A stretch of DNA of 64,000 nucleotides, taken from contig BOKR01000001.1 of assembly GCA_016861085.1 (NCBI GenBank), positions 668,081-732,080 of the forward strand. Direction: 5' to 3'. Positions within the stretch are counted from its first letter, which is position 1; the number at the start of each line of letters is the position of its first letter. The notes under the pieces were generated by a model. It ran no database searches and was not told the DNA's origin. It was given only the letters and a program-made list of their open reading frames with translations. The DNA is from Patescibacteria group bacterium (GTDB lineage: Bacteria > Patescibacteriota > Microgenomatia > UBA1400 > PJMF01). The position numbers were made by a program, and so were the translations under genes. Shown here piece by piece: positions 53,719 to 63,514 of the stretch.

Positions 53719-54129
53719 TTAGCTTTTCTTCACACCGTATTTACTACGAGAAGTTTTTCTGCCACTTACACCTGCAGCATCATATTTGCCTCTAATGATG
53801 TGATATTTCACACCAGGCAAGTCTTTCACTCTGCCACCTCTGACCAACACGATACTGTGTTCTGCCAATGAGTGACCTTCACCCATAATGTATGCTGTAA
53901 CTTCCATTTTATTAGAAAGACGAACACGAGCAACCTTACGAAGTGCTGAGTTTGGTTTCTTAGGAGTCATAGTTTTGACTACAGTACAGACACCACGTTT
54001 CTGTGGGTTGTTAGTCATAACTTGTTTACCAGTATTAGAATTAAAACTTCGGCGTAGTGCTTGAGCTTTAATTTTTTTAGGTTTACTTTTACGTCCACCT
54101 TTTCTAATTAACTGATTAATTGTTGGCAT
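53719..54129 (-). CDS. rpsL: 30S ribosomal protein S12
   Basis: [13 protein letters not shown]…[16 protein letters not shown]…. Confidence 0.95.
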
Positions 54130-54221
54130 AATTGCTGCTTTCTTACTTTTTCGTTATATATATCTATTTAATGTTTGCTATTTTTGAAGTCACACTTACC
54201 ACAAAAATAACGCGAGAACTG

Positions 54222-54230
54222 ATTATATCA
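54222..54230 (-). promoter_or_regulatory. Extended -10 TGATATAAT (minus strand) about 90 nt upstream of rpsL
   Basis: Plus-strand ATTATATCA read directly. No strong -35. Confidence 0.4.
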
Positions 54231-54266
54231 TGAAGCGCTTATTTGTGCAGAACTAAAATGAGGTTT

Positions 54267-56243
54267 TTACTTACCAGCACTAATTGTTTTTATTCTAGTA
54301 AGATCAACAGGTTTTTCTGAGAGGAACGACCATAAAAAACGCTCAACAAGTAATCCATTAACCCATAGGGAGATTGTGTTTTCAGAAATTCGCAGTTTTT
54401 CAATAATAGCCCTTACTTGTTGTGGATAATCTTGCAATCTCAATCCAGAAGCAGAACCGCCAACATAGAAGCCATTTTGGGAATCACCTTTAATTGCGGT
54501 TTGTCCTTCTCTATCTTGAACTATGCCAATATTTAACCCAGATAATCTTGATAACATATTTTCGATATTGAACCGTTCAAGTCCTGTTGCAGGAATCACA
54601 TAGTCATACTGTTGCGTTCTTACCGATCTTTTCTTTCCAGCTGGGGCGTCACTGACAACTATAGCTGTTGTTTTTCTATCTGCATCTTTCACTTCAGCCC
54701 ATCGTGTAACTCTATTTGCAATTGTAGTAATTACACCTTTATTTTTCTCTGAAAACACTCTCTTATATCTAGGTCTTACAGCCTCTGCAAACTCTTGTGG
54801 AGTCTGTTCGGGAATGTTGTAGTGGGTCACTTTTGGAATTACCTTTCTACTTAATTCGAATGGATATGAAAGCAACGGTCCATCAAAATTGAATAACTCA
54901 GACAAAGTATATGCCGTATCAGCACCACCAATAATAGCGACACTTTTTGGCTGACCGGTTTGAGGATCAATTTGAAAAACTTCATTCAAAGGGAAATATT
55001 TCGGATCTGGATTTGCTTGTAACTCCTCGTACCAAAATCCATACAGCTTTTCTATAGAAGTTAAGGTAAGTATTTTTGGTAAATCCCAAACAACTTTATT
55101 TAATCTTCCAGATCTTACATATGCGCGGTTAGTTTCTATTTGTTTATCAATCGATTTTGCCGCTCGCTCATATGATGCTCTTGTAGTTCTGTCCTCAATT
55201 TTACAAACTTCTCTTCCAGGACCAGTTAAACAAATAACTGCAGCCGCATCTATTTTTCTTCTTTTACCTCTTGAATCAACCAAAGTTAATTCTTTGGTCC
55301 CATCTGCATTAACTTTTGTCTGGCTTAAGTCAACCTCTTGCCCAACAATATAGTCTGTCGCCCCTAAAGCAATATTTGTAGCTATCGCAGCTCCAAGTTT
55401 TTGTCCGGCAATATATTCTCGAGTTACACCATCGTCACAAACTACGCGTAAATCACCAGCATCTATAAGGTTTGAAAGACGAACAGCACCAAGCTGACCA
55501 CTCACTGTAATTGGAGTTGTGCCACTATTTTGTAGTGGTAAACGTTTTCCATTAGCTGATTCATTTACTGTACTGTTAATATAGAGAGGACGATTCCTCC
55601 ATGGTTTACCGATGGTTGTTTCCTTTGTAATAACGGTAACGTTGTAAAATGGACCTAGTAACTGGACTGCCAGAGAGGTTAATGGACCCCCTCCAATAAT
55701 TACTATATCCTTTTTTATTTTTTTTCTTCTAGAGCGATCAATCTCAGTTATATTTCTTCTAGAAGAATCTTGAACTGCAGTATCTATCTCTCTTAGCCAT
55801 ACTGCTCTCAATTTTGGTTCATTTAAAATAACTTCAAGTTGAAAATCCAAAACATCCTCTGGAACACTGAAAAAAGTATCAATCCCTTGTGGAGCCTTTT
55901 CTCGGAAAGTTGAGAAAAACAGACCTCTTTTTTCTGCATATGCCAGTTGAAAATTAAATTGGTTAACGAGGTCATATTGAGATCTTTTTGTTGCAAAAGT
56001 CCTATCAATGAAAGCCTTCAAGGGCCCTAGATTCTTTCTTCTACTCTTGAGGATATAGTATGATAACTCTGGAGCAGTGAGCTTAATTCCAACTATTGCT
56101 AACTCTCTTTGTAACTTATTTAAAAAGCTTTTTTTTAAGCTTGAAAGGTCAGCTACATCTGAGTTTGCTCTCACAAAATCGACTGCTTCAGTTATTGGTG
56201 GTAAATTTTCTCTTTTTTCTTGCCTTAAAGTTTTTCTTAGCAT
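54267..56243 (-). CDS. Two-dinucleotide-binding-domain flavoprotein-like protein (658 aa) with an approx. 180-aa N-terminal extension; putative FAD/NAD(P) oxidoreductase of unknown function
   Basis: Two Rossmann beta-alpha-beta fingerprints: IVIIGGGPLTSLAVQLLGPFYNVTVITKE and VAIIGGADTAYTLSELF. C-terminal GD-like motif NGFYVGGSASG. No closer family recognised. Confidence 0.55.
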   Translation of the reverse strand: MLRKTLRQEKRENLPPITEAVDFVRANSDVADLSSLKKSFLNKLQRELAIVGIKLTAPELSYYILKSRRKNLGPLKAFIDRTFATKRSQYDLVNQFNFQLAYAEKRGLFFSTFREKAPQGIDTFFSVPEDVLDFQLEVILNEPKLRAVWLREIDTAVQDSSRRNITEIDRSRRKKIKKDIVIIGGGPLTSLAVQLLGPFYNVTVITKETTIGKPWRNRPLYINSTVNESANGKRLPLQNSGTTPITVSGQLGAVRLSNLIDAGDLRVVCDDGVTREYIAGQKLGAAIATNIALGATDYIVGQEVDLSQTKVNADGTKELTLVDSRGKRRKIDAAAVICLTGPGREVCKIEDRTTRASYERAAKSIDKQIETNRAYVRSGRLNKVVWDLPKILTLTSIEKLYGFWYEELQANPDPKYFPLNEVFQIDPQTGQPKSVAIIGGADTAYTLSELFNFDGPLLSYPFELSRKVIPKVTHYNIPEQTPQEFAEAVRPRYKRVFSEKNKGVITTIANRVTRWAEVKDADRKTTAIVVSDAPAGKKRSVRTQQYDYVIPATGLERFNIENMLSRLSGLNIGIVQDREGQTAIKGDSQNGFYVGGSASGLRLQDYPQQVRAIIEKLRISENTISLWVNGLLVERFLWSFLSEKPVDLTRIKTISAGK

Positions 56244-56277
56244 TTTGTTTAATTGACTTTACTTTGTAAAAAAAGGC

Positions 56278-56306
56278 ATTATAACGTGTAATAGTGGATA
56301 CGTCAA
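56278..56306 (-). promoter_or_regulatory. Consensus-like sigma-70 promoter (minus strand) TTGACG-17-TATAAT driving the 658-aa gene
   Basis: Plus-strand ATTATA at 56278-56283 and CGTCAA at 56301-56306. The spacer is exactly 17 nt. Confidence 0.5.
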
Positions 56307-56315
56307 GCAATTACA

Positions 56316-56344
56316 AAGCAGCCTCACAAAAAGTGAGGCTGCTT
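56316..56344 (-). terminator. Hairpin downstream of rpoC: 12-bp perfect stem AAGCAGCCTCAC/GTGAGGCTGCTT with loop AAAAA, followed on the minus strand by TGTAATTG (modest U-tract)
   Basis: Read directly. It separates rpoC from the inserted 658-aa gene. Confidence 0.5.
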
Positions 56345-56367: not shown

Positions 56368-59300
56368 TTATACTGTGATCTCGGCTCTCTCTTTGCTTGT
56401 TGGGATCAAACGTCCGATAATAACGTTTTCTTTCAACCCTTCGAGGTAATCAATATCACCTGCTGAAGCTGCATCTGTTAACACATTTTTGGTGTGTTGG
56501 AATGAAGCAGCAGACAACCATGAAGCTGTAAAAAGCGATGATCTGGTAATACCCAAGAATAACACTTTAGCAGTGGCTGGTTCACCACCAGCTGCCATTG
56601 CTTCATCATTGGCTTCAATGAATTTAGCTCTTTCAATTACTTCACCAGTCAAGAAATCAGTATCTCCAGTAGATTCAATCATGACTTTATCAGACATTTT
56701 TCTGATAATCACTTCAAAGTGCTTATCATGAATAGGAATACCTTGTGATTCGTATACTGCTTGTACCTGACCAATTGTGTATTGTTGTGCTTGAGTCAAA
56801 CCAGTCACGATCATTAACTCTTTTACATTGATCGCACCAGAAGTTAATTGTTGCCCAGCATACACTAGGTCTCCATCTGATACAACTATATCTGTAGAAA
56901 GAGGTACTGTGTATTGTACTTCTTCTGATGGAGCTGCTGTGGTTTTAATAGTAATGATCATCTCTTTTTCAGTCTCTTCAAGAGAAACTTTACCGGTGAC
57001 TTCACTAATTAAAGATTGATTCTTTGGTGAACGTGCTTCAAGCAATTCTTCCACACGAGGCAAGCCTTGAGTCACGTCAGCACCAACGATACCACCTTTG
57101 TGCTTAGTTCTCATGGTTAACTGAGTACCTGGCTCACCAATTGATTGTGCGGCCAAAATACCAACTGGAACACCGATCTCAATCATCTTTGAAGTTGAGA
57201 AGTCGATGCCATAGCATTGGGCACACAAACCCTTTGGAGAATCACAAGTGAGTGGTGATCTCACCTCTGCTGAAGGTAACCCTGCTGCTACTAATTCTTC
57301 TGCAAGTTCGATTGTGAGTAGTGTACCTTTTTGTGCTACCACTTTACCCTTAATTAAAGCGTCTTTTGCCAAGATTCTGCCTGAGATTCTGGTTGCAAAG
57401 ACATCAGTTCTATCTTCATTGGTAATTGTGATGTAATTTTGAGTACCACAGTCCTCAAGTCTAATAATTGCGTCATGAGCAACGTCACACAAACGTCTGG
57501 TAAGGTATCCTGCATCTGCTGTTTTGATAGCAGAGTCAGTTAAACCTTTACGAGAACCTCTTGCAGATGTCACGTACTCGAAAATTGTCAAACCTTCTCT
57601 AAAGTTAGATTTTGTAGGCATTTCGACAATGTTTCCAAGTGGGTCAACAACAAGTCCACGCATAGCAGCGAGTTGTTTCACCTGATCTTTTGAAGCACGA
57701 GTACCACCTGATTCAATAATAACTTTGACTGCATTATCAGCTGAGTAAGTTTCCCATGTCTTTTCTGCAATTTCTTCTGTTGTATCAATCCAAACATCAA
57801 ATGAAAGTCTCTTTCTCTCTTCGAGAGCGATCATACCTTCATTATACTGTTCTTGAATCTCTTCAACTTTCTTGTTTGCACTGGCAATGATCTCATTTTT
57901 CTCTGGGATCATCTCACAGTCAGACACAGAAACTGAAATTCCAGAAACTGTTGCTGCAGCAAAACCCAGATCTTTGATACTGTCAATTAATCTTGTGACA
58001 ACATCTCTATCCAAGGTTTTGATTGCTGTAGTAACCAACTGTTTGATTTTCTTTGCTGGAATTGCTTCGTTAATGAACCCAAATTCTTCTGGCAACACAT
58101 CATTAAATTGGAGTCTACCAACCGTTGTTTCAACAACTTTGTTCAGACCATTTACTTGTATTCTTACCTTTGCAAGTTGTCTCAAACCTAATTTGCCAAC
58201 CTGATATGCATGGTATGCTTCATCTTTTGAAGCAAAAATACTTGCAAATCTTGGCAATTTTGTATCAACTGCTGTGTGATAGTACACACCCATAGCCATT
58301 TCTTTGTTAGGAATGGTTATTGGTTCACCGTTAGCAGGTTTGAGCAAGTTGTGAGTTGCCATCATTAACTCTTGAGCTTCTTCTTGAGCTTTTTTGGTTA
58401 GTGGAACATGCACAGCCATTTGGTCACCGTCAAAGTCAGCGTTATACCCTGAACAAACACAAGGGTGCAATCGAATAGCGTTTCCTTCAATCAAAATTGG
58501 GAAGAAGGCTTGCATACCAAGTTTATGCAAAGTTGGAGCACGGTTTAAAATCACTGGGTGATTTTTGGTAACCTGTTCAAGAATGTCATAGACTTCTGGC
58601 TCGTGTCTTTCAATTAAGTGTTTTGCACTCTTCACGTTTGGAGCTATACCATTAACAATCAGTTCACGTAAAACGTATGGTTTGAACATTTCAAGTGCCA
58701 TATCTTTTGGTAATCCACACTCATTGAGTTTGAGTTCTGGACCCACAACGATAACTGAACGACCTGAGTAGTCAACACGTTTACCAAGCAAGTTCTGTCT
58801 GAAACGACCTTGTTTACCTTTCAACATCTCTGAGAGAGATTTGAGTGGCCTTCTGGTTTGTCTTCTTCTGGTTTGTCGTGCACTTGAACCATCAATTAAT
58901 GAATCAACTGCTTCTTGAAGCATACGTTTTTCATTTCTTAAAATGATCTCTGGAGCACCAAGCTCGATCAAATGTTTCAAACGGTTGTTACGATTGATAA
59001 CTCTTCTGTACAAATCGTTCAAATCTGAAGTTGCAAATCTTCCGCCTGAAAGTTGTACCATAGGACGTAAGTCTGGTGGTATAACTGGTAAGATTGTCAT
59101 GAACATCCAAGATGGCTTGATTCTTGCTTTTCGCAAACCCTCAACGACTCTCAAGCGTTTGGTAGCTTTGAGACGTTTTGCACCTTTTGATTCGACAACT
59201 TCGTCTCTTAGTTTGATCACAAGATCGTCTAAATCTACTTGTGAAACTAACTCAAGAATACTCTCTGCACCCATACCAACTCGCAAGTGGCTTGAAGCAT

Positions 59301-60084
59301 TGTAATCATCAAGCTTGAGGTATTCGTCTTCTGAAAGGATAGTTCCTTTAGAAATTTTCTTGACCATTTGCTTGACGGTTTTGTATATCTCTTCAGTCTG
59401 TTCAAGTTGCACTTCTAGTTGCTTTTTGAGCGCTGCCAATTTGTTTTTAGCTTTGAGTTCAATTTCGGTCAACTTAAGTTGTAAAGTTTCCTTATTGGTG
59501 ACTTTTTCTTTTAAGTGTTTTTGATCCTCAACCAAAGTGTTAGTAACAACTTCCATTTCTTTCTTAACGTTTTCTTTGAGCTCGTCTTGTGCCGCAACCA
59601 AATCAACGTCTAAGTTTTCAACAACTGCTGTTCTTTCTTCTACATCTACATCTAATACAACGTATTTTGAGAAATACACAATTGAACTCAAGTTTCTTGG
59701 ACTAATGTCTAGGAGTAAAGAAAGTTTTGATGGAGCACCCTTGAAAAACCAGATATGAGCAACTGGAGCGGCCAATGAAATATGACCCATTCTCTCACGT
59801 CTCACTTTTGATTGTGTTACCTCAACACCACATTTATCACAGACAATACCTTTGTAACGAATTCTTTTGTATTTACCACAATAACACTCATAGTCTTTGA
59901 TAGGTCCAAAGATTTTTTCATCAAATAAACCATCTTTTTCTGCTTTCAAAGATCTGTAGTTAATTGTTTCTGGTTTTTTAACCTCACCGTATGACCAAGA
60001 TTTAATTGTATCTGGGTCTGCGATTCTGATTTCTAAGGCTGAAAAGTTAATTATATTCTTCATATGTGTTTCCTTATTCTTCAT
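56368..60084 (-). CDS. rpoC: DNA-directed RNA polymerase subunit beta-prime
   Basis: Zn-finger [22 protein letters not shown], catalytic NADFDGDQM. 1238 aa. Confidence 0.95.
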
Positions 60085-63000
60085 CCTCCGCTACTTCATC
60101 ACTGAGTTCTGACTCATCTGGTTCTGTAAAATCCATGTCTTCTACATCTTCAAGTTCAGCATCATCATCTACTGCAACTTCTTCCTCTGAGCTATTATCG
60201 AATTCATCTGCTGCCATTTCTTCTGGGGCGAGTTCGATTTTTTCTTCTGTTACAACTTCTTCTTCTTCTTCAATTTCATGAGGAACAACGTCGATACCAA
60301 GTGAATTCAACTCTCTCATTAAGACTCTAAATGATTCTGGAACTGTTGGTTCTGGAATATCAAGACCTTTAACAATAGATTCAAAAGCCTTTGCTCTACC
60401 CATCACATCGTCAGATTTAATGGTAAGCATTTCTTGCAAGGTATGAGCTGCCTTATGTGCCTCAAGTGCCCAGACTTCCATTTCTCCAAGTCTTTGACCA
60501 CCCATTTGTGCTTTACCACCAAGAGGTTGTTGTGTGACTAAAGAATATGGACCAGTTGAACGAGCATGCATTTTGTCTTCCACCATGTGTGAAAGTTTCA
60601 AAATATACCCAATACCAACTGTGGTTGTTTCAGCAAATTTTTCACCAGTTCTACCGTCAATTAATTGAGCTTTACCAGTGACTGGTAATCCTGCTCTTTC
60701 AAGTTCTTGCCAGATTTTAGCTTCTTCAAATTGCTCAAATGCTGGGATAGCAATCTTGTAACCAAGTTTTTGTGCTGCCCATCCTGCATGTGCTTCCAAA
60801 AGCTGTCCAAGGTTCATACGAGCCAAGACAGAAAGTGGTGAAATAATAATGTCAACAGGAGTACCATCTTCTAAGTGTGGCATGTCAGCGGTTGGAATTA
60901 TCTTTGAAATAACACCTTTATTACCATGACGTCCTGCTAACTTATCACCAACAGTGATTTTTCTAACTTGTGCAACTTTCACAGTTACTTCTTTAAGAGT
61001 ACCTGGATCAAGTTCATCTCCTAGGTCAGTGTCTAAAACTTGCACTTCTATAACAGTACCAGCTTGACCATGAGGTAGTCTCAAGGATGTATCACGAACC
61101 TCTCTGGATTTTTCACCAAAGATAGCACGCAACAATCTTTCTTCTGGAGAAAGTTCTGTTTCACCTTTTGGAGCAATCTTACCAACTAAAATATCACCTG
61201 AAGTAACAACACTTCCAACTCTAATAATACCGTCTGGAGTCAAGTTTGAAAGATACACTTCTGAAACGTTAGGAATATCGTTGGTGAGTTCTTCTGCACC
61301 CAATTTGGTGTCCATCACTTTTGCTTTGTATTCGTTAATCTGAACAGAAGTCAATGTATCATCTCGCACCAGTCTCTCTGAGATAACGATAGCGTCTTCA
61401 TACCCAAGACCTTCAAAAGATGCGTACGCAATTGTTAAGTTTGCACCAAGTGCTAACTCACCCTGATCAGCTGCAGGACCATCAATGATGACATCACCTG
61501 CAACAACTTTATCACCAGCTTTTACAATTGGTCGCTGTGAGTATGAGGTTGATTGTGAAGTTCTTACAAATTTTGTGATTGTGTATGTGTCAACACCATC
61601 TGCATAGTGATATACCTCATCATTAAGCTCTTCTGCTTCAGCTTCAGCTTTTTTGATTGCTGGTTTTGCAAGTTCGACAACTACTTTGGTAGCGTCAACA
61701 TAGCTTACTGTACCATCATGAAGCGCTGTAACTGTTCTATCCATTGCTGTTGCGATCGCTGCTTCCATACCAGTTCCAACGATTGGAGCCTGTGGTCGAA
61801 CTAAAGGCACTGCTTGACATTGCATGTGAGTACCCATCAAAGCACGGTTCGCTTCGTCATTAGCAATAAATGGAATCAATGATGCTGAAGTACCAATCAC
61901 TTGGTGAGGAACAACATCTATATATTGAACCTCTTGGACTGGACCTTCAGTAAAGTTATTCATATAACGAATAGCAACCCACTCGTCTTGAATAACACCT
62001 GAATCATCTATCTTAACACTTGCATGAGTGATTCTGTAATCTTCTTCTTCGTCAGCTGAAAGGTAAGAAATTTCGTCAGAAACCACCATTTTGCCGTTTT
62101 TGTTCTCGACTTTTCTGTATGGAGCTTCTAAAAATCCGAATGCATTAACTCGAGCGTATAGAGTTAAGTAGGTAACCAAACCAATATTTGGACCTTCTGG
62201 AGATCTCACCGGGTCAATTCTTGAGTATTGTGATGCATTAATGTCACGCATAGAAAATGATGCGCGCTCTCTGGTAACACCACCAGTACCCATGACTGAC
62301 AAACGTCGTAAATTGTCAATTTCTGAAAGCGGGTTGGTTTGATCTAAGATTGTTGAAAGTCTGTTTCTTCTGAAGAATTCAGAAATTGTAGCGATTAATG
62401 GTCTTGCATTAACCAAAGCTGCTGGAGTTAATACATCCTCAGTTTTAGTAAGGGACATTTTTTCACGAATTGATTTTTCAAGTCTAATTAATCCAATCCT
62501 GAATGCCGATTCTCGAACCAATTCACCAATTTGTCTGACTCTTCGGTTACTTAAGTGGTCAATATCATCAACCTTTCCTTGACCATTTTGTAGTTTGAGC
62601 AAGTATTTTACGGTTGCAACGATATCTTCTTTAGTAAGGATAGTTGTTTCTTGATCGACAGAGAGACTAAGTCTTCTGTTTAGTTTATATCTTCCGACTC
62701 TACCCAGATCATATCTTCTTGGATCAAAGAATAATTGCTTAAAATACTCTCTTGAAGTTTCCAAAACTGCTGGTTCTCCTGGTCTCATCTTTTCATAGAT
62801 TTCGATCAGAGCCTCTTCTTGTGTTTTGGTTGCATCTTTTTCAATTGTGTTTGCTACCAAATTATATTCGTCTAAGGCAATTTCTTCCTTGAGCAAGTCC
62901 AAAATTTCTTCATCACTTGCATACCCCAATGCTCTTAACAAAACACTTACTGGAATTTTTCTTCTTCTGTCAATTTTAACTGTGATGACATCACGTTTTC

Positions 63001-63514
63001 CAACAGTAACTTCAATCCATGAACCTCTTTTTGGTCTAAGTTCTGCAGTATATAAACTGCGTCCAAGAGTATTTTCCATAGCACCGCTAAAGAAAACTCC
63101 TGGTGATCGCACTAATTGGGTAACAACAGCACGTTCAATACCGTTAATAATAAATGTACCAATTTTAGTCATTTTAGGAATATCACCTAAAAAGACTTCC
63201 TGAGTTTTTTCTTCGCCGGTTCGTTTGTTGATCAAGGTAGCCTCGACATACAAAGGCATATCATAAGTAACACCTTTATTTTTGGCTTGAGTAACAGTGT
63301 ATTTTGATTTTCCAAATCGAAAGTCACCAAAAGAGAGTGACCAGTTTTTACCAGTGTAATCTTCGATACCTTTTTCACCATTGACTTCTTGCAAAGCTCT
63401 TTTGATCCCGTTGTCCAAAAAATCTCTGTAAGAATCCAATTGTAATTTAATTAAGTCTAGTTCTGGAAGGATTGTATGTGACTGTCCCCAATTGAGACGA
63501 AGTTTGTTCTGCAT
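60074..63514 (-). CDS. rpoB: DNA-directed RNA polymerase subunit beta with an approx. 65-aa poly-acidic C-terminal tail
   Basis: Conserved Rpb2-type regions (…[17 protein letters not shown]…, …PFLEHDDANRALMG-like…). C-terminus [11 protein letters not shown]…DEVAEDEE. 1146 aa. Confidence 0.95.

Follow-up and report, generated by a model that had tools for sequence, protein, structure and literature searches.

A very rare flavoprotein-like gene separates rpoC from rpsL in a 64,000-nt stretch of a Patescibacteria group bacterium genome (assembly GCA_016861085.1, contig BOKR01000001.1, positions 668,081 to 732,080; hereafter the window). The gene (BroJett025_07080; 54267..56243, minus strand) is annotated as a hypothetical protein, and both it and its 658-aa product are called X here. 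We propose that X is probably a lineage-specific accessory cassette encoding a soluble flavoprotein of ~74 kDa, which would belong to a very rare, uncharacterised clade resembling thioredoxin reductase (TrxR) and likely be an NAD(P)H/FAD oxidoreductase. A genus-level group of Microgenomates-type Patescibacteria either acquired the cassette or exchanged it among its members, and the position of the cassette reflects a permissive insertion spot without a tie to translation. A preliminary description of the window had offered a functional link to translation, with lineage-specific insertion as the alternative; comparison of the junction across relatives shows exactly the latter.

X is an intact open reading frame (ORF). 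Upstream of it lies the core gene rpoC (1238 aa; 56368..60084, minus strand), and downstream rpsL (136 aa; 53719..54129, minus strand), the first gene of the str operon, which is followed by rpsG, fusA, tuf and rpsJ. Both flanking genes were taken from the ORF list; RNA_pol_Rpb1 Pfam domains were found on the identical rpoC gene in loci L103 and L104, and a Ribosom_S12_S23 Pfam domain on the identical rpsL gene. The spacers on the two sides of X measure 124 nt (rpoC-X) and 137 nt (X-rpsL). The segment rpoC-X-rpsL-rpsG-fusA is nucleotide-identical in four Logan assemblies from different sequencing runs, and because these independent assemblies carry the identical order, the arrangement is not a misassembly. 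Samples in which the BroJett025 population occurs include those behind DRR258781 and SRR8466082. The placement of a 658-aa ORF at this junction, as first described, is thus sound.

To survey the rpoC-rpsL junction in relatives, the C-terminal 399 residues of RpoC served as the query against GTDB species representatives, a design in which the presence of X was not presupposed. Eighty loci were returned, mostly from Pacebacteria- and Woesebacteria-type Microgenomates, with RpoC C-termini 51-91% identical to that of the window, and X was absent from all 80 by tblastn. Seventy of the loci had rpsL in reach; 61 had spacers of at most 400 nt, with a median of 122 nt, and the other nine had spacers of 0.5-4.4 kb with unrelated ORFs (L010:6191-6893, L012:6191-9140, L020, L026, L038, L042:5083-9511, L046, L061 and L064). 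These inserts encode hypothetical proteins, a weak receiver-domain protein, a pilin-like protein, a pre-ATP-grasp protein and a membrane protein. The remaining ten loci, where examined, had other genes after rpoC or reached a contig end. The rpoC-rpsL spacer is therefore a recurrent insertion site, or hotspot, for unrelated accessory genes in Microgenomates-type Patescibacteria, and the earlier picture of an inviolable locus is not supported, in view both of these inserts and of the loci in which rpoC and rpsL are not linked.

X itself is not routine at the junction; one further locus, L006, shares the arrangement. The limits of the cassette can be read from the three closest relatives, L007-L009 (RpoC 86-91% and S12 96-99% identical), in which a canonical rpoC terminator runs straight into CTGCACA...TGxTATAATCAGTTCTCGCGTTATTTT, with the rpsL promoter lying within 168-213 nt. 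The promoter and leader in these relatives are those found downstream of X in the window; the X promoter and gene thus occupy precisely the interval that separates the rpoC terminator from the ancestral rpsL promoter. L006 is a 2.2-kb metagenomic contig with a 63%-identical X in the order seen in the window: rpoC tail, homologous hairpin, TTGAC/TATAAT promoter, X and rpsL promoter. The shared arrangement indicates a single origin of the cassette in the genus-level group, in which it is variably present. X is kept under purifying selection, with dN/dS of about 0.15 between the window and L006 at a dS of about 1.9, which is near saturation; core genes compared between the window and L007-L009 gave dS values of 0.5-1.2.

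The transcription signals around X fit such a cassette arrangement. Past the rpoC stop codon is a hairpin (56316..56344, minus strand) formed by a perfect 12-nt inverted repeat with arms at 56316-56327 and 56333-56344 and a 5-nt loop. The 124-nt spacer folds with -30.4 kcal/mol as compared with -18.4 +/- 2.9 for shuffled sequences (z = -4.1). The hairpin is homologous to the rpoC hairpin of L006, and canonical terminators occupy the equivalent place in L007 and L008, so that it is a probable rpoC terminator, with a weak U-tract (TTTGTAATT) that explains why a simple terminator scan missed it. Directly after it stands the predicted X promoter (TTGACG-17-TATAAT; 56278..56306, minus strand), which matches the consensus at 11 of 12 positions and is the best promoter-like site of the region; both hexamers and the hairpin are kept in L006, the sole close homologue locus. 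The near-consensus promoter behind the rpoC hairpin had been pointed out in the preliminary description, and so had the lack of an obvious terminator before rpsL; both observations hold. The 137-nt X-rpsL spacer has no significant structure (z = -0.4), and no terminator was predicted in it. Since no terminator is predicted after X, rpsL-rpsG-fusA-tuf would probably also be reached by read-through from the X promoter, in addition to being served by the ancestral rpsL promoter (TGCACA-16-TGaTATAAT, 54249..54222), which together with the conserved leader start (CAGTTCTCGCGTTAT) spans 54207..54249 on the minus strand, as identified by promoter scan and by comparison with relatives.

Probable co-transcription with the adjoining rpsL, given the missing terminator, and retention of the arrangement in two lineages (the window and L006) are what would be expected of a translation-linked flavoenzyme that modifies tRNA, rRNA or S12, or otherwise serves the str operon, with position reflecting co-regulation. 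Against this, none of the 80 relatives has X at the junction and the other family members sit in unrelated contexts, and we consider such a function, as first suggested for X, highly improbable.

The protein was examined by structure prediction and by motif counts over 39 aligned family members, to which all such counts below refer. An AlphaFold2 model of X based on ten homologues (pLDDT 80.7, pTM 0.85) predicts that the N-terminal aa 1-170 are all-helical and are followed by two Rossmann-type domains (aa 177 to ~600), with a helical insert at ~350-410 within the Rossmann part, and by C-terminal helices. The first Rossmann beta-alpha-beta unit (aa 178-208, VIIGGGPLT...VTVITKE; 55620..55712, minus strand) is the presumed FAD site and aligns with the FAD motifs of TrxR (PDB 2q7v) and NADH oxidase (PDB 1xhc); G184 is found in 39/39 and G186 in 37/39 members, and position 189 is T in 28, A in 6, S in 3 and G in 2. 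The second Rossmann motif (aa 433-449, SVAIIGGADTAYTLSE; 54897..54947, minus strand), the presumed NAD(P)H site, has G439 in 39/39, Gly at position 441 in 27/39 and D442 in 36/39, and begins the Pyr_redox_2 match, in which profile positions 143-267 cover residues 433-584 of X. A third conserved region runs from the ATG motif (aa 552-554) through a degenerate GD motif (aa 592-600, FYVGGSASG; 54444..54590, minus strand). G554 and G596 are both present in 39/39, and residue 597 is S in 24, A in 8, T in 5 and P in 2, with Asp in none. Of the 'GD-like' motif that had been recognised at the C-terminus, the Gly thus stands in every member, but the residue that follows is Ser, Ala, Thr or Pro and never Asp.

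The two Rossmann fingerprints proved genuine on profile comparison. The 39-member profile puts GGGPLT on the GGGPAG of TrxR and 'ATG...yiaGSA' on the 'ATGR...FVAGDA' of lipoamide dehydrogenase (PDB 3ic9; E 4e-6), and Pyr_redox_2 matches 21/39 members at E<=0.1 (best E 1.5e-6). Foldseek searches with the model of X gave E values of about 1e-10 to structures of ferredoxin-NADP+ reductase (FNR), lipoamide dehydrogenase (DLD) and N-hydroxylating monooxygenase (NMO). Among the hallmarks of the two-dinucleotide-binding-domain (TrxR-like) flavoprotein superfamily, X has the N-terminal beta-alpha-beta unit with the FAD GxGxxG motif, though the third Gly is replaced by Thr, Ala or Ser in 37/39 members; it also has the second, NAD(P)H-type Rossmann unit and the overall two-Rossmann-domain fold. 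The Asp of the C-terminal GD motif, which contacts the FAD ribitol, is found in 0/39. Membership of X in this superfamily, to which a resemblance had initially been noted, is supported by the predicted fold and by profile comparison. A search of PDB sequences with the single protein returned noise only, and NCBIfam gave no match for X or its close relatives.

The first ~180 residues, which had been left without assignment, stay so for the N-terminal ~176. This all-helical domain (aa 1-176; 55716..56243, minus strand) is clade-specific and without a known relative. Its pI, examined as a hint of nucleic-acid binding, is not consistently basic. A C-terminal helix (aa 621-635, ENTISLWVNGLLVER; 54339..54383, minus strand), in which N622 and W627 are each conserved in 38/39, is a further mark of the clade. 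Together with W215, R216, N223, S224, P236, T242, T243, C269, R490, R492 and Y493, these invariant or near-invariant positions define a private clade signature. C269, C338 and C347 are the only cysteines of X.

An exhaustive hidden Markov model (HMM) search of 1.84 billion representative proteins returned 158 matches at E<1e-3, 54 of them at E<1e-30. The weaker half of the 158 constitutes a sister family, A4 (P0061-P0105), whose members are metagenomic, 620-700 aa long and wholly unannotated. A4 is homologous to the X family over 472 columns that include part of the N-domain (hhalign probability 100%, E 2e-50). The two families have in common RP-x-[YF]-x-INS, GxGDT, R-x-RY and ENT-x-x-x-W-x-N, the last corresponding to the C-terminal helix segment, which A4 keeps as ENTxAIWAN. 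Like X, A4 has no GD Asp. Unlike X, it has the canonical motifs GAGxxG (GxGxxG), GGQ and GGGDTG and lacks the 350-410 helical insert. Outside the window genome, the sole named member of the family is a hypothetical protein of Reticulibacter mediterranei (Ktedonobacteria; KSF_036610), a homologue of higher GC. Another homology search with the profile, this time word-indexed, turned up neither further members nor further names, and a cluster look-up yielded no names. A pattern scan of GTDB species representatives gave no confirmed relative, but it also missed Reticulibacter mediterranei, a known carrier whose protein matches the pattern; the coverage of the scan is uncertain and it was not relied upon. 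Nothing relevant was found in the literature on BroJett025 and on Patescibacteria flavoproteins. The superfamily itself is well known, whereas Pfam, NCBIfam, PDB, PADLOC and PHROGs contain no description of the X clade and of its signature, N-domain and rarity.

X was compared with the characterised families of the superfamily, and by motif and profile tests it fits none of those examined, including the MnmG/TrmFO, NMO and TrxR families among which a placement was first to be sought. Low-Mr TrxR was rejected with CxxC in 0/39 members, the glutathione reductase (GR)/DLD group with CxxxxC in 0/39, and the tRNA-modifying MnmG/TrmFO (GIDA) flavoenzymes with no GIDA-family profile or fold match. 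Sequence identity of X to the bacillithiol disulfide reductase Bdr/YpdA (PDB 7a76) and to low-Mr TrxR (PDB 3cty) is just 15-17%. In contrast to Bdr and TrxR, X is without CxxC, without the GD Asp and without a Cys inside the GGGPLT loop, a Cys in that glycine-rich loop being a Bdr feature; it adds the 176-aa helical N-domain, the helical insert at aa ~350-410 and the C-terminal helices.

TrxR-type FNRs (PDB 3lzw, 5ygq, 6gar and 3ab1), to which the Foldseek E values of about 1e-10 apply, are likewise TrxR-like without a redox disulfide. The GGQ...YPEKPIYDI and GGGDSA of FNR 5ygq align to LGGQFRSYGeRPvFrI and GGGDTG of A4, which in turn correspond to G-x-PWRNRPLYINS and GGADTA in X. FNRs, however, are ~330 aa long, widespread and in possession of the GD Asp, whereas X is twice that length and very rare. 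No ferredoxin or flavodoxin partner gene was found beside any family member in the neighbourhoods examined.

X could also be a class B flavin monooxygenase resembling flavin-containing monooxygenase (FMO) or NMO, in which NADPH-reduced FAD and O2 would form a C4a-hydroperoxyflavin that oxygenates an N or S nucleophile. FMO and Baeyer-Villiger monooxygenase (BVMO) were nonetheless rejected as families for X, with the motif FxGxxxHxxx[YF] (as defined in PMC10028610) and the BVMO fingerprint in 0/39 members, and so was NMO, the Lys_Orn_oxgnase profile matching 1/39 at E 0.059; the FMO-like and Pyr_redox_3 profiles matched 0/39. The second motif GxGDT and the GGQ of A4 are moreover closer to TrxR and FNR, and we regard a monooxygenase as unlikely. 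JsFMO, an enzyme with an extension, also differs from X: the extension is a SnoaL-like alpha+beta domain and it carries FxGxxxHxxx[YF][KR] (PMC10028610), whereas the N-domain of X is predicted to be all-helical and the JsFMO-type motif is missing in 39/39 members.

Under the proposed oxidoreductase function, FAD would sit in the first Rossmann unit (G184-x-G186-x-x-T189 ... T206) and NAD(P)H would be bound by the second (G439-x-[G/A]-D442-T443). NAD(P)H would reduce the flavin by hydride transfer, and the reduced flavin would pass the hydride directly to an acceptor; as X lacks a redox-active disulfide, its chemistry would be unlike that of thioredoxin or glutathione reductase. The acceptor pocket might be formed by the clade-specific residues W215/R216, N223/S224, P236, T242/T243, C269, R490/R492/Y493 and N622/W627, with the helical clade-specific N-domain packing onto the core. 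More speculatively, and with low confidence, X and A4 may represent a functional class of two-Rossmann flavoenzymes that is new, with their own helical N-domain, an active site of W215/R216, N223/S224, C269, R490/R492/Y493 and N622/W627, no GD Asp and an undescribed chemistry, transferred horizontally between soil Chloroflexota-like bacteria and ultra-small Patescibacteria.

The missing Asp and the replacement of the third FAD-motif Gly, along with the lack of a catalytic Cys pair and of an FMO motif, would also suit a catalytically dead pseudoenzyme with a flavoprotein fold, acting as a scaffold or binding protein. We consider this improbable, for both glycine-rich loops, the ATG motif and ~25 more positions vary little or not at all among sequences that are only 20-35% identical, and the low dN/dS points the same way. 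A4, furthermore, keeps canonical GxGxxG and GGQ motifs while lacking the Asp, which suggests that the Asp is dispensable in the clade.

The contexts of family members elsewhere differ from one lineage to the next. In another genome of the Candidate Phyla Radiation (CPR), a homologue of X lies between argS and rseP; on a 40%-GC contig one adjoins TPR, VIT1 and AHSA1 genes; and on contigs of 50-66% GC homologues occur among genes for a sigma factor, response regulator, CsrA, integrase, type III CRISPR proteins, Prim-Pol, WD40 proteins, a phage-type ligase and a sliding clamp. There is no conserved gene neighbour across 19 loci. WD40 was considered as a recurrent neighbour (four lineages) and rejected, WD40 proteins being abundant in those genomes. 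All homologues but L006 lie outside the window's own lineage, and none of those adjoins rpsL.

Mobile-element cargo of a conflict or defence type, spread horizontally and landed by recombination between conserved flanks, is an explanation that overlaps with an accessory cassette. It would account for the patchy spread from low-GC CPR genomes to contigs of 50-66% GC and for the neighbours of the homologue in L005 (an integrase, type III CRISPR genes and a transposase) and elsewhere (Prim-Pol, phage-type DNA ligase, sliding clamp and phrog families). At the window locus, however, there are neither direct or inverted repeats that would be mobile-element scars around the insert nor an integrase. 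Foreign composition was tested and rejected, as X looks native in its GC content, GC3 and codon use. PADLOC and PHROG profiles gave no match to X at E <= 1e-3 (best E >= 0.0066, over short stretches in the coiled-coil insert), and an IMG/VR scan found no relative. We therefore judge this origin to be rather unlikely.

In the high-GC, non-CPR contigs L090:2502-8688, L091:1216-8640, L088:2135-4213 and L005:121-17947, the homologues lie in one-directional gene arrays that include a phage-type ATP-dependent DNA ligase, a sliding-clamp-like protein, Prim-Pol, integrase, CsrA, a sigma factor and type III-B CRISPR genes. These contigs may represent plasmid, phage or island contexts.

Several points weigh against X as an accessory redox cassette. 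Binding of FAD and NAD(P)H by X is predicted from fold and motifs, and its Pyr_redox_2 score of 19.5 bits is below the Pfam gathering cutoff of 26.1. With Thr mostly in place of the third FAD Gly and the GD Asp missing in 39/39 members, cofactor binding could be atypical or lost. Read-through into rpsL is predicted from the missing terminator. The sole locus with the shared arrangement, L006, is a 2.2-kb contig in which a frameshift separates the N-domain of X (162-2112) from its Rossmann core, giving ORFs 162-656 and 616-2112; the frameshift could stem from misassembly of a low-coverage Logan contig or mark a true pseudogene. The cassette may have been gained once and later lost in some relatives, or may have been transferred between relatives.

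The enzyme superfamily is well known and the finding is not a fundamental one. Few redox enzymes are generally ascribed to Patescibacteria, and a very rare, uncharacterised clade with a distinctive signature and an extra domain is a candidate for biochemical characterisation. The recurrent inserts between rpoC and rpsL warn against inferring function from position in 'conserved' operons. The window also offers a clear-cut natural case of a cassette with its own promoter that sits between a terminator and the promoter of the next operon, where it probably adds transcription into the str operon.

Further observations were made on the junction in the surveyed relatives. The L010 and L012 inserts have a homologous small protein in common (…LDYNNTVIKIVDK.GLLN…), and the L042 insert is the one with pilin-like, pre-ATP-grasp and membrane-protein genes. 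In L055:6193-7891, L060:6280-7482, L044, L057, L058 and L065 (about 61-65% RpoC identity), rpsL does not come after rpoC, so that linkage of rpoBC to the str operon is not universal in the phylum. An ORF of ~400 aa follows rpoC in L055 and L060, with a second ORF of 174 aa in L055; at their N-termini the predicted products resemble cysteine desulfurase and IscU-type proteins. In the public records, many of the metagenome-assembled genomes (MAGs) behind L007-L086 bear the titles 'uncultured Pseudomonadales', 'Gammaproteobacteria', 'Limisphaerales', 'Methylococcaceae' or 'Vitreimonas', apparently a taxonomic mislabelling.

The rpsL promoter has an extended -10 element (TGnTATAAT) followed by the invariant initial transcribed sequence CAGTTCTCGCGTTAT, which is CAGTGTTCGTGTTAT in the next clade. 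The motif is kept in the seven closest relatives only (L007:6309, L008:6283, L009:6261 and also L010-L013), and it may be a regulatory leader element. An Rfam search returned a chance match to OxyS only (E 0.52). Finally, in the mechanical ORF list the rpoB ORF (60074..63514) and the rpoC ORF overlap by 11 nt at 60074-60084. The true start of rpoC may be an internal ATG, the second Met being at residue 8.

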